Part shown: positions 8,681-35,566 of the stretch, in pieces
How the letters are laid out: every line of letters starts with the position of its first letter
How positions within the stretch are numbered: position 1 is the first letter of the stretch
NCBI GenBank assembly: GCA_964550545.1
Contig: CAZJZN010000001.1
Span: forward strand, 1 to 37,462
Reading direction: 5' to 3'
DNA length: 37,462 bases
Source: an uncultured Bdellovibrionales bacterium
GTDB taxonomy: Bacteria > Patescibacteriota > Minisyncoccia > Moranbacterales > UBA1568
Translations under genes and position numbers: made by a program
The notes under the pieces: generated by a model
Seen by the model: only the letters and a program-made list of their open reading frames with translations
What the model was told of the DNA's origin: nothing
The model's database searches: none

Positions 8681-8764
8681 AAAAACAAAACTGGAACGCA
8701 AACGAAACAAAAGCCGCAATCCGAAGCCAAAAACATCAGACGACACTTACCACAAAATTCCCGG

Positions 8765-10749: not shown

Positions 10750-10905
10750 CAGTAGCACTCAGAAATCCCACATCCTGAATAATCCGATCGGATTTTCTCA
10801 TATCAGAGCGGAAACAGCTCGAGAAGATACCTCTGGATTGCCTCGAACTATTCAAGAGACAGTGCCAAAGTAATACCAAATCAAATAAAACTGTTCTATA
10901 AGTGC

Positions 10906-11003
10906 GTGCCGAGACTGCAAAAAATAATTTTTCGAAACTTCGCTCCGATCCGAGAGGAGTGCGTGAGAAAAATTATTTTTTGCAGTCGAGGTAACTCTCA
11001 AAA
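10906..11003 (+). ncRNA. Structured repeat element copy A (21-bp perfect stem, 33-nt loop) in the gyrA leader
   Basis: gactgcaaaaaataatttttc (10913-10933) pairs perfectly with gaaaaattattttttgcagtc (10967-10987). It is homologous to 31921-32018, with compensatory stem changes. It ends 61-77 nt upstream of the gyrA ATG, counted from the homology end and the stem end respectively. Confidence 0.6.
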
Positions 11004-11063
11004 TAGCAGAGATCTATTTGATTTAGTATAACGCTCAACAAATATTCCGTTCACCACGATATT

Positions 11064-13538: not shown

Positions 13539-13629
13539 GGGTTGACAAGAAACCGAAGAGGTGATATATTTTAGTGTCCAGAACCTTGGACAGAGTTTTT
13601 TCAAATCCCATCACTTCGAGGAGCTAGAA

Positions 13630-14067
13630 ATGGCCACTATAGAGATCGTTCAGAATACCGATGGCACGTCCGGTCTTCATTCTGAACAAAAGGAGCGAGA
13701 AGTACACCTTTTTTCTGATAGCAAGACCGACCGGAAGATCGGCTGGAAGAATTATCGCATAGGGAGCTCGTACATGTGCGATGAAACTATGGTCTATCCC
13801 TTTTTTATCAACTTGGATGAAGTAAGAGAAAAGGGGTGGGTTTCCTTTGCTCTCACTCCAGAAATTGATCAGGACCCTAGAACTGACAAGAGAATCTTCA
13901 ACGTCTGGTTCAGCAATTCTGATGTTGACTGCCTAAGAGAGGGGACAGCTGAATATCTCGAAATTATAGGGTTTTCCGTTCCTATGGTCAGCAATAACCA
14001 ACAACGGGAAATAAACGAAAAATACCGAGAACGAATCCTGCAAGCCGCAAGAGATTCGCTTCTCTAG
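13630..14067 (+). CDS. Hypothetical protein (orphan, AT-richer)
   Basis: 145-aa ORF starting MATIEIVQ with GGAG 8 nt upstream. I recognise no motif. A clean terminator follows. Confidence 0.5.
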   Translation: MATIEIVQNTDGTSGLHSEQKEREVHLFSDSKTDRKIGWKNYRIGSSYMCDETMVYPFFINLDEVREKGWVSFALTPEIDQDPRTDKRIFNVWFSNSDVDCLREGTAEYLEIIGFSVPMVSNNQQREINEKYRERILQAARDSLL

Positions 14068-14084
14068 CTGAAACATCAAAAAAA

Positions 14085-14107
14085 CCAAGCGTCCGCGCTT
14101 GGTTTTT
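14085..14107 (+). terminator. Rho-independent terminator
   Basis: ccaagcg-tccg-cgcttgg followed by ttttt. Confidence 0.75.
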
Positions 14108-14210
14108 CATTTGCGTAAAAAATACTTGTATGATAGGCTTCTATCATAATTTGTTAGGGGACGAGCCTGGATTGGTTTGAATAAACGAATCCTGTGCCGT
14201 ACGAAAATGT

Positions 14211-14565: not shown

Positions 14566-15063
14566 ATGGCCAAATTTAAAGAACAGCGTGTCGGAATGCT
14601 CGTTGACGTACAGAATATGTACTACAGCGCGCGCATCCTCTTTAGCAAGAAGGTGAGTTTCAAGAACGTTCTTCTTGCGGGGACGGCGGATCGGAAGCTC
14701 ATCCGCGCGATCGCTTACGGTATCAAGACGGTCGAGGGAATGGAGGAGAAGTTTTTCGAGGCACTCGAAAAATCCGGCTTCGAGGTAAAAACAAAAGATT
14801 TGCAAATTTTCCCCGATGGTTCCAAGAAGGGCGACTGGGACGTGGGTATTGCGATGGATGCTGTCCGGATGGCGCGAAACCTCGATGTTATCATCTTAGT
14901 CTCCGGCGACGGCGATTATATCCCCCTCGTCGAATACATCCAATCAACGACTGGGTGCCGTGTTGAAGGAATGGCGTTCAAAGAATCCGCAAGCAGTAAA
15001 CTTATCGAACAACTCGACGACTTCATCAACTTGTCAGAAGACAAGAAGCTATTTTTGATATAG
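14566..15063 (+). CDS. NYN-domain (LabA/DUF88-like) putative RNase
   Basis: Start taken at MAKFKEQ. GMLVDVQNMYY, GDWDVGIAMDAV and ILVSGDGDYIPLVEYIQ match the NYN acidic-residue pattern. Confidence 0.8.
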   Translation: MAKFKEQRVGMLVDVQNMYYSARILFSKKVSFKNVLLAGTADRKLIRAIAYGIKTVEGMEEKFFEALEKSGFEVKTKDLQIFPDGSKKGDWDVGIAMDAVRMARNLDVIILVSGDGDYIPLVEYIQSTTGCRVEGMAFKESASSKLIEQLDDFINLSEDKKLFLI

Positions 15064-15095
15064 AAAATTCCTGACAATTTTCTCGCAATACTTGA

Positions 15096-15122
15096 AAACC
15101 CCTGATTCTATCGGGGGTTTTT
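15096..15122 (+). terminator. Rho-independent terminator
   Basis: aaacccc-tgattctatc-gggggttt followed by a T-run. Confidence 0.65.
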
Positions 15123-15200
15123 CGTATAATTCCAAAATATTTCGAATTGACACCAAGGAAAACTCCTACTACACTGTCCGAACTTTGAAAAACTTTTTCT

Positions 15201-19950: not shown

Positions 19951-20019
19951 TTTCAAAAGAAAAAAGAGCCGAACAAAATATGTTCAGCTCGTATTAAATA
20001 AATCGGGGTTTCCTTTTTC

Positions 20020-21408
20020 CTATGAAATCGACCGTTTCAAGACATTTGGATGCTTCTCTGCAAGCGTCAGGATGAGCTCGCCAAAGAGCGAATTTGCCCA
20101 CCCAAACCACGGTCTCGTAAAACGACGGGGATCATCAATATCCACACTCTCGTGTATAAAATACGTTCCCGCGTGCGTTTCTTTGAGTGTACGGAGGCAC
20201 TGCAGTATTTCCTCTTCATTGTCGGTCGTGAGCGCCTGCACGATCGTAGCCATCGGCCAAAAACGCTCCAGTGCTCCCGTATGGGGACTCGCTACGCCGG
20301 AAAACCTTCCTTGAAGAAAAAATGGGTTCCACATTCCCAGAATAAACTGCCGCGTCGAGAGATACACCGGATCATCCGAAGAACAATATCCAAGAAGAGG
20401 AAGACTCAAGAGACTCGGAACATTTGGGTCATCCATAAGGCACTGCGATCCGAATCCGTCAATCTCGTACGCGAAGATATCGCCACAATCCCGATGAGCG
20501 ACAATACCGTTTCGCCTGATACCCTCGTCAATTTCCCGCGCCATCCGCTCGCACCGATTTACCAAGGATTCTTGAGCCGAAGGAAGCACCCGTAGTAAGA
20601 CCGCAACAGCCCGAAGTGCCACAACAGCAAAAGCGTTTACTGGAACAGAATATGGGAAAACCGCTTCATCATCCGACGGACGGAAAACACTCCGAATAAG
20701 ACCACACTTCCGTCCGGGATAGCCATGCCCATCAAGACGAACCGAAGGAAAAGGTTTTCCATTTGGCGCAAAGAATCGAAACATTTCCTTTGCATTGTCC
20801 CTCGAGAGGGTCTCTCGCTCCCGATCAAACAGATCAAGAACCTTCACAATTGCCTTGATCCACCGAGTATCAAAGGGAAAAATGTCACTGGAATACTCCC
20901 AATACTTGGCAGAAAGCCACAGAAACGACGCGAGGCTATCGAGTTCAAATTTCCTCTCCCAGACTCCCCGCTTCCATTTCATCCCCTTTGGCCACCACGG
21001 ATTTTTGGACACCCGGGAACGTGTTTGATATGCAAACGCATTCGCGTATGGATCTATGAGGACACACGCTGTCTGACGTCGCACTAAACCGGCAACCATT
21101 TTCTTCAATGATTCTTCTTGATCGATAAAACGAAGATAAGGAACCACCTGGTTGGCAGAATCTCGAAACCACAATGCCGGAATATCTCCTGTTGAAATAA
21201 ACGTATCCGGCTTTCCCTGGGCATCCTCGGTATACATCACCGCCGTATCCAGCGTATTCGGAAGGCACTGAGAAAACATTCGCTGAATTTCCGGATCGAC
21301 AATACGCCTGGCAATATCGACAATAATATGTTCAATTCGTTCACTCCGAAAAAGCCTTTTTGACTCCTCGGGACGACTTTTCAAACGCGCGAAATATTTC
21401 TGATTCAT
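20020..21408 (-). CDS. GH125-like (DUF1237) metal-independent alpha-mannosidase family protein
   Basis: Start taken at [32 protein letters not shown] matches the family signature as I remember it. Confidence 0.7.
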
Positions 21409-21677
21409 ATGAAAGTCTCTCCCAAAAATATAGTATTGATAAGGTACCCTGTTGCCACAAAACGCGCAACATGAAACCATACATCAGCAAACATCGAAAG
21501 TCAACTACCCAACAACGCGCATTCCAAGTAGAAAGCCCTCGTTCAAACTCGCCCGGAAATCCCTCGAAGGTAAATACGACACCCCCACGAAATATTCACA
21601 TTCCAAAACTGTGAAACAAATATCAAAATTGGTCACACAAAAAACGGCTCCAGAAAGCCCTGAAAATTAAGAAATGG

Positions 21678-21733
21678 CTATTCGATAGTCAAATATCGAA
21701 TAGTCTTGACTTTTCGATAATACACTATATAAT
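21678..21733 (+). promoter_or_regulatory. Promoter plus upstream 10-bp inverted repeat (possible operator)
   Basis: The inverted repeat is ctattcgata-gtcaaa-tatcgaatag (21678-21703). The promoter is ttgact (21706-21711), 16-nt spacer, tataat (21728-21733). The ATG lies only 9 nt after the -10 element. Confidence 0.55.
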
Positions 21734-21741
21734 AGTCATAT

Positions 21742-22863
21742 ATGAAACGCGCACAAACCGAAAACATCCTCAAAGATCTCGAGAAAAAAATGGTCTTCCT
21801 GGTGGGTCCCCGCCAAGTGGGGAAGACGTGGCTCTCGAAAGAAATAGCGAAAACGAGCGATGTTCCCGTCTATTTAAGCTTCGATCAAGCGGAAGACCGC
21901 GAAATCATCAAAAAAGAGGCGTGGCCTGTCGGGACGACGCTTCTTGTCCTCGATGAACTCCACAAAATGCGAGGATGGAAAAACTATTTGAAGGGAGTTT
22001 TTGATACCAAAAATCCCACTCTCAAGATTCTCGTGACCGGAAGTGCACGACTCAATACCTTTCGACAGGCCGGCGATTCACTCGCAGGAAGGTTTTTCAT
22101 CCACCGACTCCTTCCGTTTTCTCTCTCGGAATTGAAACGTATCGGGGAACCGTCCGATATGGAAAAACTCATCACCCGAGGCGGTTTCCCGGAACCGCTC
22201 CTCACCGAAACAGAGGAGGACGCCGAACGATGGCGGAGTCAGTATTTTGACGGACTCATCCGAACCGATATTTTGGATTTTGAAACCGTACACAATTTGA
22301 ATGCTGTCCACATGACACTGGAACTCCTCCGCCGTCGCGTGGGATCGCCCGTTTCACTCGCCGGTATCGCCGAAGACGTGCAGGTGTCCCCGATCACTGT
22401 GAAACGGTATCTGGAAATTTTCGAGTCACTATTCATCATTTTCCGCGCAACACCCTATACGAAAAACATCGCGCGCTCCATTCTCAAGGAACCTAAGGTG
22501 TATTTCTTCGATACGGGACTCGTCAAAGGGGATATCGGGGCACAATTTGAAAACTTCGTCGCCGTGAGCCTCCTCAAACATACCTATGCGCTCTCGGATA
22601 TGACCGGGAAACAGCATGAACTCAAGTATTTGCGAACCAAAGACGGAAAAGAAACGGATTTCGTGCTCGCGGAAAACGGCGTTGCCACCGAACTGGTAGA
22701 AGCGAAGACTGCGGAAAGCGATCCGAGTTCGAATCTCCTCTATTTTTCAAAAAAATATGGCATCAAGGGAACACAAGTGGTCAAAGATGTAAAACAAGAA
22801 GCGTCTTTTCAAGACATCAATATCGTTTCAGCTGAAAAATATCTAGAAAATCTCTTTTTGTAA
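21742..22863 (+). CDS. AAA+ ATPase with a C-terminal DUF4143-like domain
   Basis: Walker A is GPRQVGKT and Walker B is LLVLDELH. The length and C-terminal region fit the AAA_14/DUF4143 architecture. Confidence 0.75.
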   Translation: MKRAQTENILKDLEKKMVFLVGPRQVGKTWLSKEIAKTSDVPVYLSFDQAEDREIIKKEAWPVGTTLLVLDELHKMRGWKNYLKGVFDTKNPTLKILVTGSARLNTFRQAGDSLAGRFFIHRLLPFSLSELKRIGEPSDMEKLITRGGFPEPLLTETEEDAERWRSQYFDGLIRTDILDFETVHNLNAVHMTLELLRRRVGSPVSLAGIAEDVQVSPITVKRYLEIFESLFIIFRATPYTKNIARSILKEPKVYFFDTGLVKGDIGAQFENFVAVSLLKHTYALSDMTGKQHELKYLRTKDGKETDFVLAENGVATELVEAKTAESDPSSNLLYFSKKYGIKGTQVVKDVKQEASFQDINIVSAEKYLENLFL

Positions 22864-22868
22864 AATCT

Positions 22869-24320: not shown

Positions 24321-24418
24321 CGTAAGGTGAGTTATAAATTTCAAATGAATTTCCAAAATTCTTTTTTCCGCCAGCTGGCGGATTAACATTTGCCATTTAT
24401 CATTCGTAGACTACCCTC

Positions 24419-25945
24419 ATGCCTGCCAAACTGTTTTCCGCCGCCACGCTGGGACTCGAGAGCGAACTCGTCGAAGTTGAAGTGGACGCTTTCAATACGG
24501 GAATGCATCACTTCACCGTAGTCGGACTCCCTGACACCACGATCAAAGAATCTCGCGATCGCGTCTCATCCGCCATCAAAAATAGCGGCTTTCTCCCGCC
24601 ACACCGCTTCGGCCGCATTACCGTTAATCTCGCTCCCGCCGATCTCCCCAAGAACACGCCCGTCTACGACGTGCCGATGGCTCTGGGATTTCTCTTGGCA
24701 ACCGAACAGCTCAATTTCGATTTCCGAGACAAGCTCTTCGTCGGTGAACTCTCTCTCGACGGCAAAGTCCGCCCCATAAGCGGCATCCTCCCGATCGCGC
24801 TCCTTGCAAAACGCTTGGGATTCACCGAGCTCTATGTTCCCGAGAAAAACGCCGCCGAAGCATCAATGATACGCGACGTCACGGTGATCCCGATCACATC
24901 CCTCTTCGATACCGCCCGACACCTCAGCAAAGCAAACACCATCGCCCCACATCCGGATATCGATATGGAATCGCTCTTCCAAGAAGAAACCTTCCTCCTC
25001 GATATGAAGGACGTCCGTGGTCAAGAACACGCCAAGCGCGCCCTCGAAATCGCCGCCGCCGGGGGCCACAATATCTTGATGAGCGGTCCTCCGGGAAGCG
25101 GAAAGACCGTTCTCGCCAAAACGCTCCCCTCCATCCTCCCCAAGCTCAATTTCGAAGAAAGCATCGAAATCACCAAAATTTTCTCGATTGCCGGGTTCCT
25201 CACGCGCGGGAATACTCTCGTCACCGCGCGCCCTTTCCGTTCGCCCCACCATAGCGCCTCAGCAGTCTCTTTGGTCGGCGGCGGTTCCTTCCCCCGCCCA
25301 GGCGAAATTAGCCTCGCGCACCGCGGCGTCCTCTTCCTCGATGAATTCGGCGAATTCTCCAAAAATGTTTTGGAGAACCTGCGTCAGCCCCTCGAAGACG
25401 GACACATCACCGTCTCCCGCGCCAAGGGCTCCCTCCACTTTCCCGCACGATTTATCCTCGTTGCCGCGATGAATCCCTGTCCCTGTGGAAACTTGGGCGA
25501 TCCCGAGCGCCTCTGCTCCTGCTCACCCCGCGAAACCGCGCGCTATAAAACACGGATCTCCGGCCCCATTATGGACCGGATCGACCTCCACATCGAAGTC
25601 CCGCGCGTCCCCTTCGACAAACTCGAAGCCCCAGGCGACGCTGAGCGGAGCCTCGACATCCGCGCCCGCGTCGAACGCGCCCGCGATATTCAAAGAAAAC
25701 GCTTCGAAGGGAAAGGAATTTTCACCAATGCCGAGATGAATAGCGCCCTCCTCCGTGAAATATGCCCCCTCGACCAAGCCGGCAAAGATCTTTTGCGCCA
25801 AGCCGTCTCCTCCATGCGCCTCTCCGCCCGCGCCTATTACCGCCTCATCAAACTCGCCCGCACCATCGCCGACCTCGAAACATCCGACCATATCACCCCC
25901 ACCCACCTCGCCGAAGCCGTACAGTACCGCTTCAAGACGGAGTAG
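24419..25945 (+). CDS. comM: Mg-chelatase-like AAA ATPase YifB/ComM
   Basis: 508 aa with Walker A GPPGSGKT, Walker B VLFLDEFGEF, a CPCGN..CSC cysteine cluster, and the C-terminal ITPTHLAEAVQYR. Confidence 0.93.
   Translation: MPAKLFSAATLGLESELVEVEVDAFNTGMHHFTVVGLPDTTIKESRDRVSSAIKNSGFLPPHRFGRITVNLAPADLPKNTPVYDVPMALGFLLATEQLNFDFRDKLFVGELSLDGKVRPISGILPIALLAKRLGFTELYVPEKNAAEASMIRDVTVIPITSLFDTARHLSKANTIAPHPDIDMESLFQEETFLLDMKDVRGQEHAKRALEIAAAGGHNILMSGPPGSGKTVLAKTLPSILPKLNFEESIEITKIFSIAGFLTRGNTLVTARPFRSPHHSASAVSLVGGGSFPRPGEISLAHRGVLFLDEFGEFSKNVLENLRQPLEDGHITVSRAKGSLHFPARFILVAAMNPCPCGNLGDPERLCSCSPRETARYKTRISGPIMDRIDLHIEVPRVPFDKLEAPGDAERSLDIRARVERARDIQRKRFEGKGIFTNAEMNSALLREICPLDQAGKDLLRQAVSSMRLSARAYYRLIKLARTIADLETSDHITPTHLAEAVQYRFKTE
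25851..25945 (+). repeat. Direct repeat, left copy (the 3' end of intact comM)
   Basis: A 95-bp segment aligns with 28155-28249. The 44-bp core atcacccccacccacctcgccgaagccgtacagtaccgcttcaa is identical at 25892-25935 and 28196-28239. Confidence 0.9.
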
Positions 25946-26103
25946 GAAAACGCAAAAAGAAATTTGACAGATCCCGAATTTGTCACTACAAAGGGAAAGC
26001 GTAGTTTTTTACCAATTCGGGTTTCGCTCCTCTTTTTCAGTTTTTGGGCAGGATACGCGGTAGGCGTGTATTCCCCGAAAACTGTAACGCGAGGAGCGAA
26101 GCA

Positions 26104-27036
26104 ATGCGAAAGTTGATGCTCTTGTTTTTGATATGCTGTTTCGGACTTCCGCTGGCAAGCCAGGAGGCGTTTGCGGAAGACGAACAGCCAAAATTGATCC
26201 TCTCAATCGATCCCAATGGCGCTATCAGCAGTTCCTATACCGAGAACGGGCACACGATCTTTATCGAGGCGCTCCGTGGCGAGAAAAAAAGTGACACAGA
26301 TGACTCTGATATGCTTCCGTACGCTCTGGATATCCGGATTCGGGATGAAAGCGGAATTCCGTTTTTGGTCCAAGACAGCGGAGTAAGCCATGGTCTGGGA
26401 GATACCGAATGGACAAACGTGCAGGAAAACCCCGAGGAAGCCGTCCGCCAACAAGCTATAAATCTGCTTCCAAATGCGATACGGTATGTGAGAGCGGCAT
26501 TGGCGGGTGAGGCTCGGGAGAATTCGATCATTCAGAACCTGACCGAAGAGAATCGATGGGAAATCATCGCTATTCTCGATCTCATGCGCTCCATGGCGGA
26601 GGATATCCCCGAAAGAGCCTTCAGGAAAAAGTCATCCACCGAAAGGTTGGCTATGGCAGCCTCATACACATACGAGTATGAGGTGTCCATCAGGAAGAAG
26701 AAGGTGGAAGGTTTATGGTATGCAGAGCATTCCGCCTTACGCGTAAAATACTACGACAACATGGGAAAAAGGTTCGCACAATACAGCTCGTGTAATCATG
26801 GCACCTGTGCCGATAACGGGGTTATGAGTACGAAATGCTCGAAGAGATTCAAGCATAACGCCATGATTGGACTTGTAAACGAGGTGTGCGATACGTTTAC
26901 GTCGTATAAATATAAGGTTCATACCTGCCACGATGATACGATCGTTCAATACCGCACATTCAAGGATGGTGGGTGGCGAACTACCCTCAGTGCAGAATGT
27001 TATGCTCCAATGCTCTCAGTGCCGAACTGTGAGTAA
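26104..27036 (+). CDS. Secreted protein with a Cys-rich C-terminal region (hypothetical)
   Basis: Start taken at MRKLMLLFLICCFGLPLASQEAFA (signal peptide), with GAGGAG 8 nt upstream. Eight Cys lie in the last 90 aa or so. I recognise no family motif. Confidence 0.65.
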   Translation: MRKLMLLFLICCFGLPLASQEAFAEDEQPKLILSIDPNGAISSSYTENGHTIFIEALRGEKKSDTDDSDMLPYALDIRIRDESGIPFLVQDSGVSHGLGDTEWTNVQENPEEAVRQQAINLLPNAIRYVRAALAGEARENSIIQNLTEENRWEIIAILDLMRSMAEDIPERAFRKKSSTERLAMAASYTYEYEVSIRKKKVEGLWYAEHSALRVKYYDNMGKRFAQYSSCNHGTCADNGVMSTKCSKRFKHNAMIGLVNEVCDTFTSYKYKVHTCHDDTIVQYRTFKDGGWRTTLSAECYAPMLSVPNCE

Positions 27037-27062
27037 GTAGCTCTTAAGGGTTAGGAAACGTA

Positions 27063-27098
27063 GAAGCCGCCACAACATGACGGCTTCTTTAATTTTTC
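27063..27098 (+). terminator. Rho-independent terminator
   Basis: gaagccg-ccacaacatga-cggcttc followed by tttaattttt. Confidence 0.6.
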
Positions 27099-27123
27099 AA
27101 GAACTTGTGACAGACGTATTCAC

Positions 27124-27624
27124 GTGATAGAGTATTGGAGTCAAAAGTCGTGGTCTAACCTCTACACAACATCTATGGGAAACCTAACATACCAACGAGC
27201 ATTTCAATATGCCGGCGTTCTTCTCTACTCTGTGTTTACAGCTTTTCTTGTCTCGTTTTTGATGGCGATGGTAACGGGTGTTTTACTCTATCCCTCAATC
27301 TCTTTCGAGAACCTCAACTTTCATATTCCGGAGTTCATTATCGCAGCAGCACTTTTTCTTGGAGGTATGCTCGCGCCATGGCTCGTTTCCTTTTGGTTCG
27401 GAACCGTAGAAAGAAGAGTCGCTATCACGAGCTATTGCTTTACGGCGCTTCTCGCAATTGTCAATGTAATACTTATTATTAACAGCAAAGAGGTAGAGGG
27501 GTTTGGTAATTCGTGGTCTACGCTGATTCTTTTTGCGATTTATTTTGGTGCCATACCTGTGTTTATACTCTCTCACCTTTTCCTCTATCTCTCCTTCAGA
27601 AAGCAAGCGACGAAGGGTATGTGA
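27124..27624 (+). CDS. Four-TM membrane protein, paralogue 1 (hypothetical)
   Basis: The start is GTG at 27124 or ATG at 27175. LFLGGMLAPWLVSFWFGTVERRVAITSYCFTALL aligns with FFLGGILAPWLISILFGAVNKKVSVTSYCFTAFL in the next gene. Confidence 0.6.
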   Translation: MIEYWSQKSWSNLYTTSMGNLTYQRAFQYAGVLLYSVFTAFLVSFLMAMVTGVLLYPSISFENLNFHIPEFIIAAALFLGGMLAPWLVSFWFGTVERRVAITSYCFTALLAIVNVILIINSKEVEGFGNSWSTLILFAIYFGAIPVFILSHLFLYLSFRKQATKGM

Positions 27625-28052
27625 TGAACTATGGAATGTGCATCGACAGGAGCTTCCCATCTTCTCATAAAGTACTTGGAATAGGCTCTATGGCAAATCT
27701 GAAGTTTCAATACATTGCTGCATTTCTTTCATCTCTGTTTCTGGGTTTTTCAATTGGAACCGTTTCCGTATTTATTCGACCACAAAGCCTCGATCAGGAT
27801 TATCATTTGGGGATTTTCTTTGCGGTTGGTTTCTTTCTGGGAGGAATACTAGCGCCTTGGTTGATTTCCATTCTGTTTGGAGCCGTGAATAAAAAAGTGT
27901 CCGTTACAAGCTATTGTTTCACCGCCTTTCTCACAGTAGTTTTTGCCGTACTTGCTCGAGGCGCGGAATTTTTCGTGTGGCTTGTTTTTTTGAGCATAAT
28001 GCCTCTGTTTGTACTTTCGAGAATTTTCCTGTACCTCTCGTATAAGAAGTGA
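27624..28052 (+). CDS. Four-TM membrane protein, paralogue 2 (hypothetical)
   Basis: An ATG at 27624 overlaps the upstream stop (TGATG), and an alternative ATG at 27690 (MANLKFQY) aligns with MGNLTYQ of paralogue 1. The C-terminus LFVLSRIFLYLSYKK parallels VFILSHLFLYLSFRK. Confidence 0.6.
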   Translation: MNYGMCIDRSFPSSHKVLGIGSMANLKFQYIAAFLSSLFLGFSIGTVSVFIRPQSLDQDYHLGIFFAVGFFLGGILAPWLISILFGAVNKKVSVTSYCFTAFLTVVFAVLARGAEFFVWLVFLSIMPLFVLSRIFLYLSYKK

Positions 28053-28154
28053 GTCGTGTGGCAAATCCCGACTCCGAAAGGAGAATGCGCTGGTATCCCT
28101 ATCGTTCGATTAGTGGACTTCTTGCAGATGATCGGCAAACAGTGAGCCAAGAGA

Positions 28155-28249
28155 AACTCACCCGGACCATCGCCGACCTCGAAGGGGCGTCCCACATCAC
28201 CCCCACCCACCTCGCCGAAGCCGTACAGTACCGCTTCAAAACGGAGTGA
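28155..28249 (+). pseudogene. Displaced comM 3'-end remnant (right direct repeat)
   Basis: It translates to KLTRTIADLEGASHITPTHLAEAVQYRFKTE, compared with KLARTIADLETSDHITPTHLAEAVQYRFKTE at the end of intact comM. No upstream comM sequence is present. Confidence 0.85.
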
Positions 28250-28255
28250 ATAACA

Positions 28256-29251
28256 TTGACTCTTCTCCCCCTCTCGAGGCACAATGGGGACGTGGTGAAA
28301 CTATTTCACAAACGACTCGTTCGATTTTCAGTGGGCGCCGTTGGTATCGGTGGCGCGGCGGTGTTTCTGTTTCCGGAGAGTAAGGCGATCGAGAACCCGC
28401 CAATAGCGAAAGAATTTCCGATTCGTGTCACCATTGAAGATTTGTCGCTTCCGGAAACGGCGCGCGTTGGAGAGAATGTGGAGAACTTTCTCACTCGCGC
28501 GGGTATCCCTTTTGCCGAAAATGATGCGCTCTCGCCAAGCAAGGAAACGCCTCTTGCACCGCATACCACCATCACCCTCGCTTCCGCCAAAAAATATACT
28601 CTTCAAACCAAAGAAGGGAAACGAGAAGGCGAGACGACACTCCGCACCGTGAGACAACTTCTCGATGCGGAGAGGATAATGATTGGGGAAAACGACCTCA
28701 TCACACCGGAGCCGGAGCGAGCGCTCACGGACGACGTCAAGATTTCCATCACCAAGGTAGACATTCGCGAAGAAATCACACAAAAGTCGATTCCCTTCGA
28801 AACCAAAGAATCCGAAGACTCGGCACTTTCATGGAGAAAGCGCCTTGTGAGCCAAAAAGGCGAGAGGGGCATTCGCGAAATCACGTACGAAATCATCTCT
28901 CACGATGGGAAAATTATCAAGAAAACGCAAAAGAAAAGCATCGTTACCAAAGAACCCGTGCCGGAAATCGTGACCCAAGGCACCAAGGTCGAGGTCGGGA
29001 AGAAGCACACGGGATTAGGGTCGTGGTATCGCTTCACCGGGACGCTCTCGGCGGCGAACCCCTGGCTCCCGATCGGGAGCCATGTCCGCGTCACCAATGT
29101 CGCCAATGGTAAAAGTGTCATCGTTCGCATCAATGACCGCGGTCCCTTCGGAAAGAATCGCATCATCGACCTCGATGCCGTCGCTTTTGAGAAAATAGCC
29201 TCCCTCGGCGCCGGCATCATCGAAGTCACAATGGAAGAAATTAGGAATTGA
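28256..29251 (+). CDS. Cell-wall protein with a G5 domain and a C-terminal RlpA-like double-psi beta-barrel
   Basis: The G5-like segment is WRKRLVSQKGERGIREITYEII...EIVTQGTKV. The C-terminal GLGSWYRFTG..VRVTNVANGKSVIVRINDRGPFGKNRIIDLD is RlpA/DPBB-like. The start is uncertain: TTG 28256 or GTG 28292/28295. Confidence 0.75.
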   Translation: MTLLPLSRHNGDVVKLFHKRLVRFSVGAVGIGGAAVFLFPESKAIENPPIAKEFPIRVTIEDLSLPETARVGENVENFLTRAGIPFAENDALSPSKETPLAPHTTITLASAKKYTLQTKEGKREGETTLRTVRQLLDAERIMIGENDLITPEPERALTDDVKISITKVDIREEITQKSIPFETKESEDSALSWRKRLVSQKGERGIREITYEIISHDGKIIKKTQKKSIVTKEPVPEIVTQGTKVEVGKKHTGLGSWYRFTGTLSAANPWLPIGSHVRVTNVANGKSVIVRINDRGPFGKNRIIDLDAVAFEKIASLGAGIIEVTMEEIRN

Positions 29252-29360
29252 ATGGAGAATGTGGAATATTGAATGGGGAATAGAAACCATGTTTCCGATT
29301 TGATTCACTATTCACTTCATCTCCTCCATTCTCCATTCATCATTCTCCATTCTATTCTAC
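29252..29360. repeat. GAATG/CATTC-rich inverted repeat, copy 2
   Basis: gaatggagaatg on the left is the reverse complement of cattctccattc, which occurs twice on the right. The element ends 3 nt before the rsmA ATG. Confidence 0.7.
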
Positions 29361-29363
29361 CCC

Positions 29364-30224
29364 ATGTTTCCCAAAAAATCCTTCAGTCAAAACTTTCTCC
29401 GCGACGAGAGCGTCCTCCGGAGAATAGCCGAAGAAATCAACCCCTCCGATACGATCCTCGAAATCGGCGCCGGAGAGGGCGCGCTCACCGAGGAACTCGG
29501 AAAGCGTGCACGAAATGTCATCGCACTCGAATTCGACCACGATCTCGTTCCGGGACTTCTTCGTCGTTTTCCGCTTTCTTCCAATGTTTCCATCGTTGAA
29601 ACCGACATCCTCCACGCCGACATCCCTTCCCTCATCGATCAGAAAGAGCTCCCGATTTCTCCATCTTCATCAAGTCCATCCAAAATATCAAGTGAATCAC
29701 GGTCAAAATCGGAGTTCAGACAATGGTCCATTTTCGGCAACATCCCCTACGGAATTACCGGGAAAATTATCCGCCTCCTCGTTGCCCTCAACCCCGCGCC
29801 CGACAAAATCATTCTCATGGTACAGAAAGAAGTCGCCGAGCGTATTGTTGTAAAAGACGGAAAACAAAGCCTCCTCTCGCTCTCGGTTGCACTCTTTGGA
29901 CACGCGGAGATCCTCTTCACTGTCTCGAGAAACGCATTTTTCCCCGCACCGGAAGTCGAAAGCGCCGTCATCCGCATCACGCCCAACCCCGGACGACTCC
30001 AAAACGAAACACGCGAACGCATTCTTCGCTTGGCAAAAATAGGTTTCGCCGCGAAACGCAAAACCCTCGCCAACAACTTCGCCACCCACCCCGAGTTTTC
30101 CAAAGAAACCATCGAACGCATCCTCGAACACATCAGCAAATCAAAAAATGCGAGAGCGGAGGAATTGTCAGCAGAAGAGTGGGAACGTCTTCAAAGAAGT
30201 ATCCCTACCGCCCACAACCCATAA
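29364..30224 (+). CDS. rsmA: 16S rRNA (adenine1518/1519-N6) dimethyltransferase
   Basis: SQNFLRD, the SAM motif ILEIGAGEGALT, and GNIPYGITG. A Ser-rich insertion (PISPSSSSPSKISSESRSKSE) lies before the NxPY motif. Confidence 0.9.
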   Translation: MFPKKSFSQNFLRDESVLRRIAEEINPSDTILEIGAGEGALTEELGKRARNVIALEFDHDLVPGLLRRFPLSSNVSIVETDILHADIPSLIDQKELPISPSSSSPSKISSESRSKSEFRQWSIFGNIPYGITGKIIRLLVALNPAPDKIILMVQKEVAERIVVKDGKQSLLSLSVALFGHAEILFTVSRNAFFPAPEVESAVIRITPNPGRLQNETRERILRLAKIGFAAKRKTLANNFATHPEFSKETIERILEHISKSKNARAEELSAEEWERLQRSIPTAHNP

Positions 30225-31819
30225 AGGGCAACTATCCCCAAAATCCACCAAAACACCGACCGGTAGGTAACCCTGCCGGTTTTTTGTTTCATGGAAACGA
30301 CCGTCCAAAAGGATGCCCCGCCGAAAAGAAGCGCCGGAAAAAAAAGCGCTGGCGCCCGAAACACAAACACACTTGCAAGAAACGAGAGAAAAATTCCAGA
30401 TCCGATGACAATCTTCGCCCATTCCGCGCCAAGGAGCACGGGAAGCGTCCAGACGCCATCCTTCCGATCACCCTCGATATCCTTGAAATCCTTGAGCGGG
30501 ATCGAGGCGGTGTAGACAAACAGAAAAAGAAAGACAATGGGCACCGGAAGCATTTTTGCGGTTCCATCGGGAGAAAATACGATATATCCAAGCATCAATA
30601 TCAAAACGCTCGCGACAGCGCTTACAGAGGAAGCTATGATCGGGAAACGCTTCAACCGAAAAGGTGGCGCCGAATACGCCCAGGCAACTGCCTGGTACAC
30701 AAGGAGAAAAAGCGAGCTTTTTATGGAAACAACCGCCGAAAAAAGCATCGATGTAACAAAAAACCCTATTCCGATCGCCGCGTAAAGAGAGCGTTCGATG
30801 CCTCCGGAAGGGAGTGGGCGCCATGCATTCGTTTCCGCATCAATCACGGTATCAAACATATCATTCGCGACAACCGATGCGAGCCATGCGGAGACAACTG
30901 CGGCGATGAGGAGAAGTATCGCGATGCCATCAAAGAAGCCTAGGGAAATCTTCGTATGCGTGAAGAGAACCGCGAGCCCCATCCCTACCAAGAGAAGCCC
31001 TCCGTGATATATCACTTGCGGAAGCCTCGCGTTTTGGAAAAGCGCCCAGAAAATATCTCGGTGATACCGGAAGAGCCACCCTCCGACAAGAAAGGGGAGT
31101 ATGGCGGCATATATCAGGCTCATCTTCACATTGAGTATCGAGCGCGGATCAACGAGATCGCGCGCAAAAAACGTGAGTGGCGAGAGAAATATCCCCGCAA
31201 CATCCGTCCCATAAATCGCCCAACGACCTTCCGACACTCCCAGAAGAAGCATCGCCGCCCACGACGGAAACGTACCAAGAAAAAATAGCAGGGTATACGA
31301 GGCAGAAATGGCGAAAAGCGCCCGGAGTTTTCGCTTCGTTTTCATCAAAACGTATGCGCCAAAAAAAACCGAGACCAGCGCCACCTCAATTCGAACGCCG
31401 TAGGTAATTCCCATATCCGGCCGATCACCAAAAAAGGTGAAGTATCGAGAAAGAAGCCCGGAGAATCCATCGAAAATATAAAAACTCCAGAGTCCCTTTC
31501 CATTCGACACGAGAAAATCAATAATGGGCGGCGTAAGAATCACGGTAAAGCCAAAAAGAAGTATATTGGAAGCGACCGCAAGCGACACCCGAGCAAACCA
31601 CCGTACCATCGGGAGAAAAAACAGAAATGAAAGGAGAAAAAACAGAAAATTATGTGTCCATTCGGAGAAAAGAAACTCCGCCGATCGGCTTTCGAATCCA
31701 AAAAGCCACGATTCAACGAGAAGTCGCGAGAGAATGAGACACGAAAACGCCACCATCCATAAGCCAAAGCTCGTCTTCGACGTTTCAATCGCGGAAAGAA
31801 TTTTTTGAAAGATGTTCAT
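30191..31819 (-). CDS. Polytopic membrane protein: N-terminal multi-TM domain fused to a UbiA-family prenyltransferase domain
   Basis: Start taken at MNIFQKIL. The UbiA motifs are NDMFDTVIDAETNAWRPLPSG and DFKDIEGDRKDG. Its 3' end overlaps the rsmA 3' end by 34 bp. Confidence 0.75.
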   Translation of the reverse strand: MNIFQKILSAIETSKTSFGLWMVAFSCLILSRLLVESWLFGFESRSAEFLFSEWTHNFLFFLLSFLFFLPMVRWFARVSLAVASNILLFGFTVILTPPIIDFLVSNGKGLWSFYIFDGFSGLLSRYFTFFGDRPDMGITYGVRIEVALVSVFFGAYVLMKTKRKLRALFAISASYTLLFFLGTFPSWAAMLLLGVSEGRWAIYGTDVAGIFLSPLTFFARDLVDPRSILNVKMSLIYAAILPFLVGGWLFRYHRDIFWALFQNARLPQVIYHGGLLLVGMGLAVLFTHTKISLGFFDGIAILLLIAAVVSAWLASVVANDMFDTVIDAETNAWRPLPSGGIERSLYAAIGIGFFVTSMLFSAVVSIKSSLFLLVYQAVAWAYSAPPFRLKRFPIIASSVSAVASVLILMLGYIVFSPDGTAKMLPVPIVFLFLFVYTASIPLKDFKDIEGDRKDGVWTLPVLLGAEWAKIVIGSGIFLSFLASVFVFRAPALFFPALLFGGASFWTVVSMKQKTGRVTYRSVFWWILGIVALYGLWAVGILL

Positions 31820-31920
31820 AGAGAAAGCATAGCAAACTCGCCACCTCTCGCGCAATTTTTGGCAATCATATAGAGTAGAGGATACAACATCAACATATAC
31901 CGAAGATCCCCACATATACG

Positions 31921-32018
31921 CGCCGAGACCGAGAAAAAGAATTTTTCGAAACTTCGCTCCGACCTGAGAGGAGTGTGTGAGAAAAATTCTTTTTCTTGGT
32001 CGAGGCAACTCTCAAGAA
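31921..32018 (+). ncRNA. Structured repeat element copy B in the pcrA leader
   Basis: gaccgagaaaaagaatttttc (31927-31947) pairs with gaaaaattctttttcttggtc (31981-32001) in 20 Watson-Crick pairs plus one G-U. The loop and flanks are homologous to copy A. Confidence 0.6.
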
Positions 32019-32059
32019 AGGAGAAGCTCTTGACAAAATCTCAATTATTTCTTCTTTAT

Positions 32060-34444
32060 ATGCCCCTCGATCCATCTCTCAATCCCGAACAACAGCGAGC
32101 GGTCAAAACCGTCGAGGGTCCCGTCCTTATCGTCGCGGGTGCCGGGAGCGGCAAAACCAAAACCCTCACCCATCGCATCGTCTACCTCATGCAAGAGAAG
32201 GGCATTCGCGCTCAAAACATCCTCGCCGTCACTTTCACCAACAAAGCCGCTGAGGAAATGCGCACACGGGTAAGAACTCTTCTTTCAGGGAACAATGAAC
32301 AGGGAACAATGAACAGGGAACGGAAAACAGGAAACACTCTTCAAAGAACAAAGGGTACAGAACCGGGAGCGGAAACTTACCAACAAGAAGATGTTGACCC
32401 ATTCAACCAACTCCCAGCTCACAACACGCCTACCGTGCCTACCGGCAGGCAGGCCGGACAGGCAGGCTCTCCACTCCCAATTTCCCTACCCCACATGGGA
32501 ACTTTTCATAGTATTTGCGCGCGAATTCTACGAAAGGACATCGCCGCTTTGGGCTACAAGCCTTCTTTCACCATTCTCGACAGCGACGATCAGACCTCCC
32601 TCATGAAGCGCATTATGAAGTCCTTGGAGATTGATCCCAAGAATATCCATCCGCGCGCGCTCCTCGACGCCGTCTCTCGCGCCAAAAACCAACTTATTGA
32701 TGAACTTCTTTTTGAATCCCAGGCCGGAAGCTACTATGAGGAACTTGTCGCCAAAGCCTACCGACGCTATCAAGAAGAGCTTCGTGGAAACCATTCGCTC
32801 GATTTCGACGATCTCCTCTCTCTTACGCTTCGGCTCTTCCGTGAATTTCCCGAGACACTCGAACGGTACCGACAAATTTTTCAGTATATTCTGGTTGATG
32901 AGTACCAAGACACCAATCATGCTCAATACACTCTCATCCACCTCCTCGCCGAACGCCACCGAAACCTCTTTGCGATCGGCGACGACTATCAATCAATTTA
33001 CGGCTGGCGACAGGCGGATATCCGAAACATTCTCCACTTCGAAAAAGACTATCCCGAAGCGGCAATTATTACTCTCGATCAAAACTATCGCTCAACCCAG
33101 ATGATTCTCGACGCCGCCGGCGCGGTTATCGAGCGAAATCCTCATCAACGCCACAAAAAACTCTGGACCGCGAAAACCGGCGGCGATCCCCTCATTGTCT
33201 TTGAAGCGGAAGATGAGCGCGAGGAGTCCGCCTATGTCGTCCGAACCATTCAATCACTCGCTACCGCGAAAAAACGTCCCTTCTCCGACTTCGCCGTTCT
33301 CTACCGCACCAACGCGCAATCACGCGCTTTGGAAGAGGCGTGCCTTCAATACTCTCTTCCCTATCAAATCGTCGGCGGGCTCAAATTCTATCAACGAAAA
33401 GAGATCAAAGACGCCATTTCATACCTGCGCGTTGTTGTAAATCCCTGGGACACGATCTCGCTCGCCAGAATCGTCAATGAGCCGCCTCGAGGAATTGGCA
33501 AAAAAAGCCTCGTTTTGTGGCTTGATACGGCGAAAACTGCGAATACCGATCCGATCACCCTCGCACAGGAAGGGGAGGGGGAAAGGCTCGAAATAGCCCC
33601 GTCCAAACAGAAGTCCGCCGCGCGCTTCGCCGGGACGATATATGAATTCTCTCAAAAACTCCCCAAAGAGGGCACGCTCTCCGTCTTTCTTCGCGAACTC
33701 CTCGAAACCGTCGGGTATATGAAATCCCTCGAAGATGGCACCGATGAAGGAAAGACTCGATTCGAGAACGTCCGGGAACTCTTTTCCGTCACGAGGAAAT
33801 ATGACAAAATTCCTCTCGAACAAGCCGCAACACTCTTCCTTGAAGAAATATCCCTCGTCTCAGACACCGACTCGCTTGATGAGAAAAAAGATGTCGTCCG
33901 CCTCATGACTCTCCACAGCGCCAAAGGGCTCGAATTCCCCTTCGTCTTCATTGTAGGACTTGAAGAGGGAATATTTCCGCATTCAAGAAGTGCGCTCTCG
34001 CCCGCCGAACTCGAGGAAGAACGTCGCCTTATGTATGTGGGCTTGACTCGCGCCAAAGAAAAAGCCTGGCTCATCTCGGCGGAAACACGGATGATCTACG
34101 GCTCGACCCAGATGAATGCCCCTTCGCGCTTTATTTCCGAAATTCCCGAGAATCTCTTGGAAACTGAGGAGCGGAAACGTGGACGCGCGGCAAGCGAATT
34201 CGCCGATACATTCCCAAAAAGCTCATCGAAAAATTCAAACAGCCGAACGGAAACAGAAAAATCTCTCTACGCAAAGCGAGAAAAACTCTCTTCCGACACT
34301 TTTCGTCCGGGCGATTCCGTCTCTCATCCCACCTTCGGAAGCGGTGTCGTTATCAAAATCGAGGGGACGCTGGCAACAGTCGCTTTTCGAACCAAAGGCA
34401 TCAAAAAACTCGTTCTTGGGATAGCGCCAATTGAGAGAATGTAG
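32060..34444 (+). CDS. pcrA: ATP-dependent DNA helicase PcrA/UvrD family
   Basis: Start taken at MPLDPSLNPEQQ. Motifs present are AGAGSGKT, TFTNKAAEEM, GTFHS, DEYQDTN, YRS, TLHSAKGLEF and YVGLTRAK. An extra segment of about 65 aa lies between motif Ia and GTFHS. Confidence 0.93.
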   Translation: MPLDPSLNPEQQRAVKTVEGPVLIVAGAGSGKTKTLTHRIVYLMQEKGIRAQNILAVTFTNKAAEEMRTRVRTLLSGNNEQGTMNRERKTGNTLQRTKGTEPGAETYQQEDVDPFNQLPAHNTPTVPTGRQAGQAGSPLPISLPHMGTFHSICARILRKDIAALGYKPSFTILDSDDQTSLMKRIMKSLEIDPKNIHPRALLDAVSRAKNQLIDELLFESQAGSYYEELVAKAYRRYQEELRGNHSLDFDDLLSLTLRLFREFPETLERYRQIFQYILVDEYQDTNHAQYTLIHLLAERHRNLFAIGDDYQSIYGWRQADIRNILHFEKDYPEAAIITLDQNYRSTQMILDAAGAVIERNPHQRHKKLWTAKTGGDPLIVFEAEDEREESAYVVRTIQSLATAKKRPFSDFAVLYRTNAQSRALEEACLQYSLPYQIVGGLKFYQRKEIKDAISYLRVVVNPWDTISLARIVNEPPRGIGKKSLVLWLDTAKTANTDPITLAQEGEGERLEIAPSKQKSAARFAGTIYEFSQKLPKEGTLSVFLRELLETVGYMKSLEDGTDEGKTRFENVRELFSVTRKYDKIPLEQAATLFLEEISLVSDTDSLDEKKDVVRLMTLHSAKGLEFPFVFIVGLEEGIFPHSRSALSPAELEEERRLMYVGLTRAKEKAWLISAETRMIYGSTQMNAPSRFISEIPENLLETEERKRGRAASEFADTFPKSSSKNSNSRTETEKSLYAKREKLSSDTFRPGDSVSHPTFGSGVVIKIEGTLATVAFRTKGIKKLVLGIAPIERM

Positions 34445-34522: not shown

Positions 34523-35458
34523 TCATTCCTCATTCTCCATTCTTTTTCCCTTCCCATGAAATTTCTCATGAACCGCACGGAGACTTTCATCCGTCACGTG
34601 AGTATAGATTTGCGTCGTAGTGATAGAGGAATGCCCAAGAAGCGCCTGAACACTCCGGATATCGGCGCCATTTCGCAAGAGATCCGTCGCAAAGCTATGC
34701 CGGAGCGTGTGAGGATGCACCGCTTTCATTATGCCCGCTTTTTGCGCGAGGCGTGCCACAATACGCTCGACTGTCCGGACTGTAATCCGGAGATCCTCAT
34801 CCGACGACTTCCGTCCAAACCCCTTCATTGTTGAAATAAAAAGCGCGGAATCGATATCCCCTCTTGATGCAAGATATGCTTGGATAGCCAATCGTGCCCG
34901 ATCGGAGAGAAACACCATTCGCACCTTTCCCCCTTTTCCCCGCACACTGAATTCTCCCGTTTCGAGATTGACCGATTCACGATTGAGCGAGACGAGCTCC
35001 GAAACCCGCAATCCCGAAGAAAAGAACGTTTCAAGAAGCGCTCGGTTACGAAGCGCCGTCAAACCCTTTCCTTCCGCCGCCTCAAAGAGACGCTTCAACT
35101 CTTCCGGCTCCAAAAAATCCACGTGTCGTCCCGGAACCTTGGCCAATTCAATACGATCCGACACAAGAGAGGAAACTCCCTCCCGAACAAGGTACTTGAG
35201 GAAGCTCCGAAGAACGATAACGTGATGATTTTGTGTCGTTTTCTTAAGTTCGTCACCTCGGACAGTTTGTTTTCGATTCAAAAAAACACGATATTTACGA
35301 ACCACGTCAAGAGTAATATCCTTTGTGTCTGTTACTTTTCCCCATTCGAAAAAACTTCGAAGAACCCGGTCGTAACTCTCCGCCGTTTTGGGAGACCGAC
35401 CGCGCTCTATTTCAACATATTCGAGAAATTTCGTCAAAAAATATGCAACATCCGCCAT
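34523..35458 (-). CDS. Tyrosine recombinase, XerC/XerD family
   Basis: Start taken at MADVAYFL. It has an N-terminal SAM-like domain, then RHSFATDLLRNGADIRSVQALLGHSSITTTQIYTHV with the catalytic R, H-x-x-R and Y residues. Confidence 0.9.
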   Translation of the reverse strand: MADVAYFLTKFLEYVEIERGRSPKTAESYDRVLRSFFEWGKVTDTKDITLDVVRKYRVFLNRKQTVRGDELKKTTQNHHVIVLRSFLKYLVREGVSSLVSDRIELAKVPGRHVDFLEPEELKRLFEAAEGKGLTALRNRALLETFFSSGLRVSELVSLNRESVNLETGEFSVRGKGGKVRMVFLSDRARLAIQAYLASRGDIDSALFISTMKGFGRKSSDEDLRITVRTVERIVARLAQKAGIMKAVHPHTLRHSFATDLLRNGADIRSVQALLGHSSITTTQIYTHVTDESLRAVHEKFHGKGKRMENEE

Positions 35459-35566
35459 AGAAAAAAGACAAGAAATTTCCTTCGATTCCTCCAGAGTATA
35501 CCACACTTTCACCTTCAATAATTCCGCTCTCATAAAGGATATTTGACAAATTCACCCAAAAAATTA

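Follow-up and report, generated by a model that had tools for sequence, protein, structure and literature searches.

A strain-variable, recombinase-less islet at the 3′ end of comM in a Moranbacterales bacterium, with signs of serial site use and horizontal exchange

We analysed a 37,462-nucleotide (nt) stretch of DNA (the window; positions 1 to 37,462 of contig CAZJZN010000001.1, assembly GCA_964550545.1) from an uncultured bacterium that is deposited under Bdellovibrionales and placed by GTDB in the Patescibacteriota (Minisyncoccia; Moranbacterales; UBA1568), and we report on a small islet that lies directly behind its comM gene. Features are on the plus strand unless stated otherwise. The comM gene (24419–25945) is intact and encodes a YifB-family Mg-chelatase-like AAA ATPase of 508 amino acids (aa), with the Pfam domains Mg_chelatase (1e-95), ChlI and Mg_chelatase_C and a match to TIGR00368 (E = 2e-180). 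A repeat search of the window recovered a direct repeat of 94 nt (25850–25943 versus 28154–28247; 88% identity; 2304 nt from start to start), which, with the stop codons included, spans 25850–25945 and 28154–28249. The left, attL-like copy (25850–25945) is the final 95 nt of comM including its TAG stop, while the right, attR-like copy (28154–28249) is a displaced comM 3′ remnant that ends in TGA. Within the repeat lies a 44-nt identical block, ATCACCCCCACCCACCTCGCCGAAGCCGTACAGTACCGCTTCAA, of which the window holds exactly two copies (25892–25935 and 28196–28239), with 0 expected in 100 shuffles. The second copy is in frame and closes a 66-codon open reading frame (ORF; 28049–28249) in which Mg_chelatase_C is still detected (E = 2.7e-8). 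The GC content is 0.56–0.63 in comM versus 0.41–0.53 between the copies. A sequence-only reading of this DNA had described a comM 3′ end that recurs downstream, in frame and with a stop codon in both copies, around 2.2 kb of more AT-rich DNA that carries three genes unrelated to their neighbours and no integrase or transposase gene. All elements of this description are confirmed, the last of them by scans against Pfam, NCBIfam, PADLOC and PHROGs.

The islet proper is the segment 25946–28153, and the unit length is 2304 nt. Just past the comM stop and upstream of ORF1 stands a promoter-like site (TTGACA-17 nt-TACAAA, 25964–25992) that was read directly from the sequence and was not detected by a consensus promoter scan; the site is kept wherever ORF1 occurs, including behind pcrA in the contigs L009 and L010. 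ORF1 (26104–27036; 310 aa) is predicted to be secreted, having a hydrophobic signal at its N-terminus; its C-terminal half is rich in Cys and His, with the motifs EHSA, SCNHGTCA and HxCxDDTxxQY, the Cys/His set of which is invariant in the alignment. A terminator-like hairpin with a U-run lies 3′ of ORF1 (27062–27097; RNA fold −15.5 kcal/mol, z = −2.25). ORF2 (27175–27624; 149 aa) is a predicted small membrane protein with about four hydrophobic segments by hydropathy, and ORF3 (27624–28052; 142 aa), the start of which overlaps the ORF2 stop (ATGA), is its paralogue (36% identity, BLASTP E = 4e-23). The islet closes with a right arm (28053–28153) that is P-arm-like, is not recognisably comM and is about 81–84% conserved in the islet of contig L007; since the reading frame is broken in L007, the arm is read as non-coding. 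No significant RNA structure was found in the right arm (28040–28160 folded), and the Rfam matches in the window are transfer RNAs only.

The ratio of nonsynonymous to synonymous substitution rates (dN/dS) is 0.21–0.37 for ORF1, 0.26–0.48 for ORF2 and 0.14–0.35 for ORF3, and this range (0.14–0.48) shows all three to be, as far as substitution patterns tell, functional genes under purifying selection. In Pfam the three have no significant match (ORF2 gave a single sub-threshold one), in NCBIfam, PADLOC and PHROGs none at all, and no Phage_integrase, Resolvase or Recombinase match was found in the islet ORFs with these four collections. A profile search of ORF1 against PDB sequences gave no match; its AlphaFold2 model was poor (17-sequence alignment; pLDDT 62.8, pTM 0.47), and Foldseek against the PDB returned nothing below E = 0.1. 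Close clusters of ORF1 number only 19, and an exhaustive search yielded 279 representative clusters at E ≤ 1e-3, so that the family reaches beyond the Moraniibacteriota clade; fusions to PPC and disintegrin domains, both typical of secreted proteins, occur among its distant relatives. The ORF2/ORF3 family has only nine clusters, all from the same lineages and none of them annotated.

Two further settings of ORF1 relatives deserve mention. A 28%-identical homologue with all the Cys/His motifs kept lies in a high-GC, phage-like IMG/VR contig (L098, 7687–8853), where it is flanked by head-morphogenesis genes (terminase, portal, Mu F-like) and a D12 DNA methyltransferase fusion. We did not adopt a phage origin of the islet: this distant homologue is a single one, and no copy of the comM-end core was found in the viral collection. 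In two more distant metagenome-assembled genomes (MAGs), GCA_036720945.1 and GCA_036733565.1, in which PcrA is about 62% identical in aa, ORF1 (70% aa) and its promoter, together with an ORF2-like gene, stand about 20 nt past the pcrA stop (L009, 2320–3771; L010, 1336–2764); both contigs stop before the right junction.

The closest GTDB representatives belong to Candidatus Moraniibacteriota and other Patescibacteria, with ComM at 61–68% aa identity, and share the conserved order UPF0102-dksA-lspA-comM-G5/DPBB-rsmA-ubiA-pcrA, in which comM abuts the G5 gene. The same holds for the complete 1.05-Mb genome CP064994.1 (ComM 85% identical). The comM-G5 order is thus ancestral across the Moraniibacteriota, and the islet therefore interrupts an old synteny. 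The ancestral right neighbour of comM, assigned by Pfam and synteny, is the G5 + DPBB (RlpA-like) gene at 28256–29251, and a promoter scan placed a promoter-like site for it at 28256–28285, just past the stop of the remnant.

An empty site, with comM followed directly by the G5 gene, had been named as the thing to look for, and it exists: six contigs of the same species (L001, L105, L111, L112, L113 and L114; about 98–99% nt identity) and two related lineages carry it. Those beyond L001 come from other samples, and L111 is 121 kb long. Most strains of the window species have the empty site, which makes the islet strain-variable. In L001, a 19-kb contig (~98% nt identity) whose ComM protein is identical to that of the window, 8730–10290 corresponds to window 24383–25943 and 10197–14140 to window 28154–32097. 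A three-way alignment shows that its single site reads as copy-1 sequence on the left, the core, and copy-2 sequence on the right. The same footprint was sought at the other two strain-specific indels of the window and rejected, neither having flanking repeats, so the duplication is specific to the comM site.

The alignment confines the recombination joint to 25892–25943 (no strand assigned), that is, the 44-nt core (25892–25935), one polymorphic G/A and ACGGAGT. The G/A at 25936/28240 was considered as a crossover marker and rejected, as the empty alleles L105 (A) and L001 (G) differ there; because this base is polymorphic among empty alleles, the joint was not narrowed further. All same-species empty alleles end in TGA followed by ATAACATTGACTC, while occupied alleles have TAG followed by the islet, with the TGA end at the remnant. 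The final codons and TAG stop of the window's comM are of the islet-associated type. Within the species, then, the TGA end is by this comparison the native one and the TAG end is the one that travels with the islet, in keeping with the earlier prediction that the element brings a replacement 3′ end, the native TGA being displaced to the right copy. As a universal marker of occupancy the TAG/TGA difference was rejected, the empty sites of L102 and L110 ending in TAG. The core and TGA end of the remnant equal the native empty-site allele exactly, while its left 42 nt carry 10 mismatches to comM and differ at those 10 positions from every same-species comM. Being unlike every same-species comM, these 42 nt entered as part of the islet and were not contributed by the recipient, and for this reason homology-facilitated illegitimate recombination in an L001-like recipient was rejected for this species.

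Could the repeat be a chimeric join made by the assembler? Unitigs built at k = 31 do break at the 44-nt core (L002 starts at window position 25906 and ends at 28225; L108 starts at 28210), yet such breaks are expected from a true 44-nt repeat at this k. Logan unitigs from five sequencing runs give the islet at 100% identity, and four independent assemblies (L092, L007, L094 and L101) span comM, islet and G5 in variant form. An assembly artefact, which the sequence-only reading had named as a possible refutation, is effectively refuted.

Variant islets occupy the same comM-G5 site in L092, L007, L093/L094/L095, L101 and L104. L092 belongs to the same species (flanks 98–99.6%), and in it ORF1 is 82–90% and ORF2 89% identical, ORF3 is mostly deleted and an extra 178-aa ORF is present (2108–2644; AT-rich, with an N-terminal transmembrane (TM) segment). 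In L007, which comes from GCA_041920175.1 and has comM at 87% nt identity, the islet has an extra TM paralogue and an ORF2-ORF2 fusion; in L093/L094/L095, L101 and L104 comM is at about 80%. Adjacent TM paralogues number 2–4 copies among the variant islets. The right remnant has decayed to different degrees: L007 has kept its left arm and lost the core, and L094/L104 and L101 have kept only the part from core to stop. L007 shares the segment 28053–28195, right arm included, at 81%. In the G5/DPBB gene it is the N-terminal half (28256–28750) that is hypervariable, being only 78% identical in nt between the window and same-species L092 versus 99.6% for the C-terminal half, and the variable region consequently extends into the G5 gene. 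Recent insertion, as originally proposed, thus stands in part: empty sites exist, but some of them may reflect secondary loss, as the islet family is present at this site in several lineages with 13–21% nt divergence in comM and with variously decayed remnants.

Contig L099 carries an array. From its edge it reads as a comM-end copy, a 2.26-kb cassette A, a second comM-end copy and an islet of the L101 type. Cassette A holds a 227-aa ORF and an AAA_14/DUF4143 ATPase, and no recombinase gene was found in it. The reverse complement of L099 matches that of L101 over 1.28 kb (2328–3601 = 1338–2612; 91.8%), and the match begins exactly inside the comM-end core. A second, unrelated cassette thus appears to have been inserted at the same ~50-nt comM-end segment, ahead of the resident islet, which supports repeated use of the site. 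Between the comM-end copies of L099 and L101 the longest identical runs are only about 8–13 nt, with the limit that the contigs are just 92% identical and the true partners may differ.

Other contigs add observations of their own. L106 has a ribbon-helix-helix (CopG-type) protein and a 158-aa ORF (123–503 and 740–1216) adjoining a comM-end copy that over 31 residues is 93.5% identical in aa to the window remnant versus 87.1% to the window comM. A block of ~200–245 nt lies upstream of the G5 promoter in L007 (4774–5020) and L092 (2640–2836) and is absent from the window locus; its GC-rich stretch CCTACCGGCAGGCAGGC... is 90% identical to a 41-nt insert-like stretch in the window pcrA (32427–32467) that encodes PTGRQAGQAGSP. 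The L007/L092 block and the pcrA stretch may together represent a small dispersed repeat.

Synonymous divergence (dS) differs strongly between the islet and its flanks. Between the window and L094, dS is 1.08 for comM and 0.10 for ORF2; between the window and L007, it is 0.64 for comM, 0.23 for ORF3 and 1.21 for ORF1; and between the window and same-species L092, it is 0.31 for ORF1 and 0.28 for ORF2, set beside 0.05 for comM between the window and L001. The L092 allele has breakpoints inside ORF1 and inside G5, and ORF1 of L094 is a mosaic with 53% aa identity in its N-terminal half and 83% in its C-terminal half. Some islet segments are thus far younger than their flanks and others far older, and breakpoints fall within genes. 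The data indicate that islet alleles belong to a pool within which they recombine and are exchanged horizontally.

In the comM tree the occupied lineages (the window species, L007, L094 and L101) share a subclade with the empty L102, and the outgroup L110 is empty. Both one old gain with losses and several gains fit this tree; from L099 and the dS values, a gain at the site is still possible. One may ask whether the islet is an old insertion that has been inherited vertically and has lost its mobility, gained once in the ancestor of the subclade and deleted precisely between the repeats where the site is now empty. The confinement of occupied sites to one subclade beside an empty L110, the three decay states of the remnants and the right arm shared at 81% with L007 are all compatible with this. 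However, ORF2 is far younger than its flanks (dS 0.10 versus 1.08), other islet segments are far older, L099 carries a fresh extra insertion at the same site, and the cores are identical while the adjoining 42 nt differ at 10 positions, which points to a recent crossover or gene conversion rather than to independent decay over a long time. We regard a solely old insertion as unlikely.

The explanation that we prefer, and consider probable, is that 25946–28153 is an integrase-less islet that was inserted by a crossover within the last ~50 nt of comM, at a site that has been used repeatedly. The incoming DNA would carry comM-end-like sequence, and a reciprocal crossover between the chromosomal site and the incoming molecule would take place inside the last ~50 nt of comM. 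This would leave comM intact with the islet-borne end (TAG) and would shift the native end, with its TGA and the promoter region of G5, across the islet, where it forms the 95-nt remnant, the products being attL = B-O-P′ and attR = P-O-B′. The same comM-end segment would then be reused, giving variant cassettes in sister lineages and a second cassette stacked before the resident one; the islet would be present or absent within a species, and its parts would be swapped between species. The locus, read as a whole, thus looks like a real case of a strain-variable, recombinase-less islet at the comM 3′ end with serial site use and horizontal exchange.

As for what drives the crossover, a site-specific recombinase encoded elsewhere and acting in trans has, in our judgement, close to an even chance. 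It is favoured by the mapping of independent events to one short segment, by the replaced gene end, by the stacking of cassettes and by the shortness of the identical runs between L099 and L101. RecA-type recombination on short comM-end homology is a possibility to be taken seriously, if a lesser one; a homology-driven process is favoured by the 44-nt identity in the window, by the flank-mediated replacement in L092 and by the fact that no recombinase, attP or helper element was found. That Xer or another mechanism is responsible seems unlikely. The site-specific integration proposed by the sequence-only reading is accordingly borne out in its footprint (an empty site, a replaced gene end and reuse of the site), while its site-specific character is inferred, no recombinase having been identified, and homology-driven recombination may account for it instead.

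Taken further, homology might account for everything: the islet would arrive as naked DNA and be inserted, replaced or lost by RecA-type recombination, with no site-specific enzyme, either on the long flanks (the comM body and G5) or on the 50–95-nt repeat, by a Campbell-type single crossover or by looping-out. ComM is known in other bacteria as a transformation-associated helicase, and these bacteria encode ComM. L092, with its same-species backbone and a divergent segment whose breakpoints lie in ORF1 and G5, fits this well, as do the mosaic ORF1 of L094 and the incongruent dS values; the 44-nt perfect identity between the window copies would be enough for low-frequency RecA recombination, and no recombinase was found. 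Flank-mediated replacement, however, creates neither a gene-end duplication nor a cassette stacked at a ~50-nt segment; the identical runs of 8–13 nt in L099/L101 are short for RecA, with the reservation on partners given above; and the other two indels of the same strain pair are without such repeats. We therefore hold homology alone to be possible, though on the doubtful side.

Several observations weigh against insertion by a crossover at the comM end as we prefer it. The leftmost comM-end copy of L099 stands at the contig edge, and its link to a full comM is unseen. In L009 and L010 the ORF1 and ORF2-like pair sits behind pcrA rather than comM. No integrase-bearing element that uses the site was found in ~20 clade loci, 80 GTDB comM loci or the viral collection, the search covering the 8–10-kb flanks of those loci only, and no viral contig was found to carry the comM-end core. 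No circular form or attP was found, where k = 31 unitigs cannot tell an attP from attL plus attR at a 44-nt core. The occupied lineages form one comM subclade with unevenly decayed remnants, with which a single old insertion and precise losses are compatible. The allele replacement through the flanks in L092, finally, means that ordinary homologous recombination could yield within-species polymorphism without a site-specific step.

An Xer-type (XerC/D-like) tyrosine recombinase gene with Phage_integrase and SAM_1 domains is present at 34523–35533 on the minus strand, as had been pointed out, 6 kb from the islet. Its nearness is no evidence for a role: the gene keeps the same position next to pcrA in L020, L102, L105, L110 and L111, empty-site genomes among them, and because it is syntenic there its proximity carries no weight. 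Elements known as integrative mobile elements exploiting Xer (IMEX), such as CTX-phi and TLC of Vibrio cholerae, have no integrase, form tandem arrays, and use the host recombinase to integrate at dif near the replication terminus; dif sites consist of two 11-nt arms and a 6–8-nt spacer and lie at the terminus. By analogy, the comM cassette could use the housekeeping Xer (34523–35533) of the host, with the comM end as a dif-like site. Like IMEX elements, the cassettes are integrase-less and tandem-stacked at one site in a host that encodes a conserved Xer-type protein, and the core contains a 21-nt near-palindrome, GAAGCCGTACAGTACCGCTTC (25913–25933 = 28217–28237), 18 of the 21 positions of which are self-complementary. 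In L094 the equivalent stretch keeps the symmetry with other bases, GAAGCGATACAGTATCGATTC. Unlike dif, though, the site lies within a coding gene and shows no sign change in GC skew, so it is not at the terminus, and the near-palindrome has a centre of 1 nt instead of a 6–8-nt spacer and is mostly a consequence of the codons for EAVQYRF, which it encodes. A hairpin or attC-like structure at the core was rejected (single-strand fold z −0.8 to −1.5), and the core hairpin is absent from the empty-site outgroups L110 and L012. By these features the comM-end site is not dif-like, and with the Xer gene standing in the same place in empty-site genomes we consider an IMEX-like mode very unlikely.

How does the islet compare with other known systems? 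AbaR of Acinetobacter baumannii also targets comM; it is a Tn7-like transposon that interrupts the gene, makes a short target-site duplication and carries its own transposition genes, unlike the present case, where comM is intact, the duplication is a 95-nt gene end and no transposase was found. Integrons have IntI and attI beside the array, and their promoterless cassettes end in a structured attC; here, by contrast, no integrase is found next to comM, ORF1 has its own promoter-like site and terminator, and the repeat is an unstructured comM fragment.

The nearest likeness is with cis-mobilizable elements (CIMEs), a concept reviewed in PMC5704250. As recounted in PMC3146451, Pavlovic et al. 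(2004) described, for elements related to ICESt1/ICESt3 in Streptococcus thermophilus, CIMEs and their accretion in tandem at the fda 3′ end. Like a CIME, the islet is small, is flanked by attL/attR-like repeats derived from the 3′ end of its target, lacks recombination and transfer genes and leaves the target gene intact, and L099 offers the tandem stacking at one site. CIMEs are, however, defined by a cognate integrase-bearing integrative and conjugative (ICE) or integrative and mobilizable (IME) element at the same att site, and no such partner was found here; unlike the streptococcal CIMEs, moreover, the islet resides in a patescibacterial host and has a long repeat (95 nt, 88%) with a 44-nt identical core. 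To judge from its structure, it would work like a CIME or satellite islet and be of that general kind in Patescibacteria; it is not a proven CIME. The ssrA islands of Dehalococcoides are likewise tandem, with direct repeats of a gene 3′ end, and include units without integration genes that have been proposed to be cis-mobilizable (PMC3146451). They resemble the comM islet in lying downstream of a conserved gene, in being strain-variable and in their lower GC; the cargo of the ssrA islands is younger than the host genome. They differ in having a transfer-messenger RNA target, a 20-bp repeat and, in many cases, a serine-recombinase module (PMC3146451), whereas here the target is protein-coding, the repeat is ~50–95 nt long and no unit has a recombinase. 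Islands at the ends of protein genes are also known from SGI1 (trmE 3′ end) and the dusA-targeting islands (PMC8409611, PMC4482086); as at comM, the end of a conserved housekeeping gene is targeted, and the gene remains functional because the element provides a new end for it. Those islands measure 10–40+ kb and have their own tyrosine integrase and excisionase, whereas the comM islet measures 2.3 kb and has neither. Of the hallmarks of an integrative element, target-derived direct repeats with an empty attB in relatives are present (the 95-nt repeat and six empty sites), and an integrase of its own is found neither in the islet nor in cassette A.

The cargo, in which a predicted secreted, Cys-rich protein with a promoter and terminator of its own precedes 2–4 paralogous 4-TM proteins, tentatively suggests by its architecture an effector/immunity-type module. 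The fast-diverging secreted protein, the adjacent TM paralogues, the presence or absence in the population and the exchange between species would fit such a pattern. No known toxin or immunity family was matched by ORF1–ORF3 in Pfam, NCBIfam, PADLOC and PHROGs, and no such fold by ORF1 with Foldseek.

Away from the islet, the window differs from related contigs at further places. A second strain-specific segment of 2.9 kb (19957–22866), missing from L001, L111 and L112 and without flanking direct repeats >12 nt, contains a GH125 alpha-mannosidase gene (20020–21480, minus strand) and an AAA_14/DUF4143 ATPase gene (21742–22863), the latter matching the PADLOC candidate defence family PDC-S01 (1.5e-57). 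The ATPase of L099 cassette A is of the same family as this one, at 29% identity. In L001 (117–2146) and L111, which represent the common strain type, glmS (622 aa, minus strand) lies between an NYN-domain gene and pnp; at the same place the window carries no glmS and only ~80 unrelated nt (15063–15146). In relatives, a TrbL_3 (VirB6-like, type IV secretion) gene follows the LysM-CHAP gene at ~0.4–0.5 kb downstream (L110, 21420–21527; L111, 20565–21527; L112, 14431–15393); the matching stretch of the window would begin at ~37.3 kb, about where the window ends.

Finally, we scanned comM and neighbouring long genes for 3′-end duplications in 80 GTDB loci, the presence of comM being the only criterion of choice. 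Two loci from other phyla, L040 (a Bacteroidota MAG) and L089 (another uncultured bacterium), each have three comM-end copies of their own, 75–160 nt long and 85–98% identical with stops kept, in arrays at 9400–12224 and 6030–14064, respectively. Their cargo is integrase-less: a protein sorted by the type IX secretion system (T9SS) in L040, and DUF5677, DUF2059, HEPN and Fic/DOC proteins in L089. Such duplications were thus seen in 2 of 79 comM genes versus 0 of ~430 neighbouring long genes (hypergeometric p ~0.02, on small numbers and loci centred on comM); a single match among the neighbouring genes was a tandem paralogue and was discounted. It is conceivable, if rather improbable, that the comM 3′ end serves as a docking site for small (2–6 kb) recombinase-less cassettes that insert serially, also in unrelated phyla. 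Each cassette would then deliver a new comM end and push the earlier one aside. Were the arrays served by a single unlinked enzyme acting in trans, or by the transformation machinery itself, they would amount to a cassette platform, integron-like or IMEX-like, with its anchor in a protein-coding gene.

In its general form the locus is an otherwise ordinary example of an island at a gene 3′ end, a kind already known. Descriptions of mobile elements in Patescibacteria are, to our knowledge, few, and so are the known routes of gene gain for these small-genome bacteria. The comM end is a sequence-defined hotspot for which empty, occupied and stacked sites are all in public data and the joint is mapped to ~50 nt. 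Its cargo is lineage-restricted, a predicted secreted protein and a variable array of membrane paralogues, and appears to be under purifying selection yet exchanged across species. This makes the locus a tractable case for how recombinase-less islets may move in comM-encoding organisms with apparently one Xer-type recombinase.

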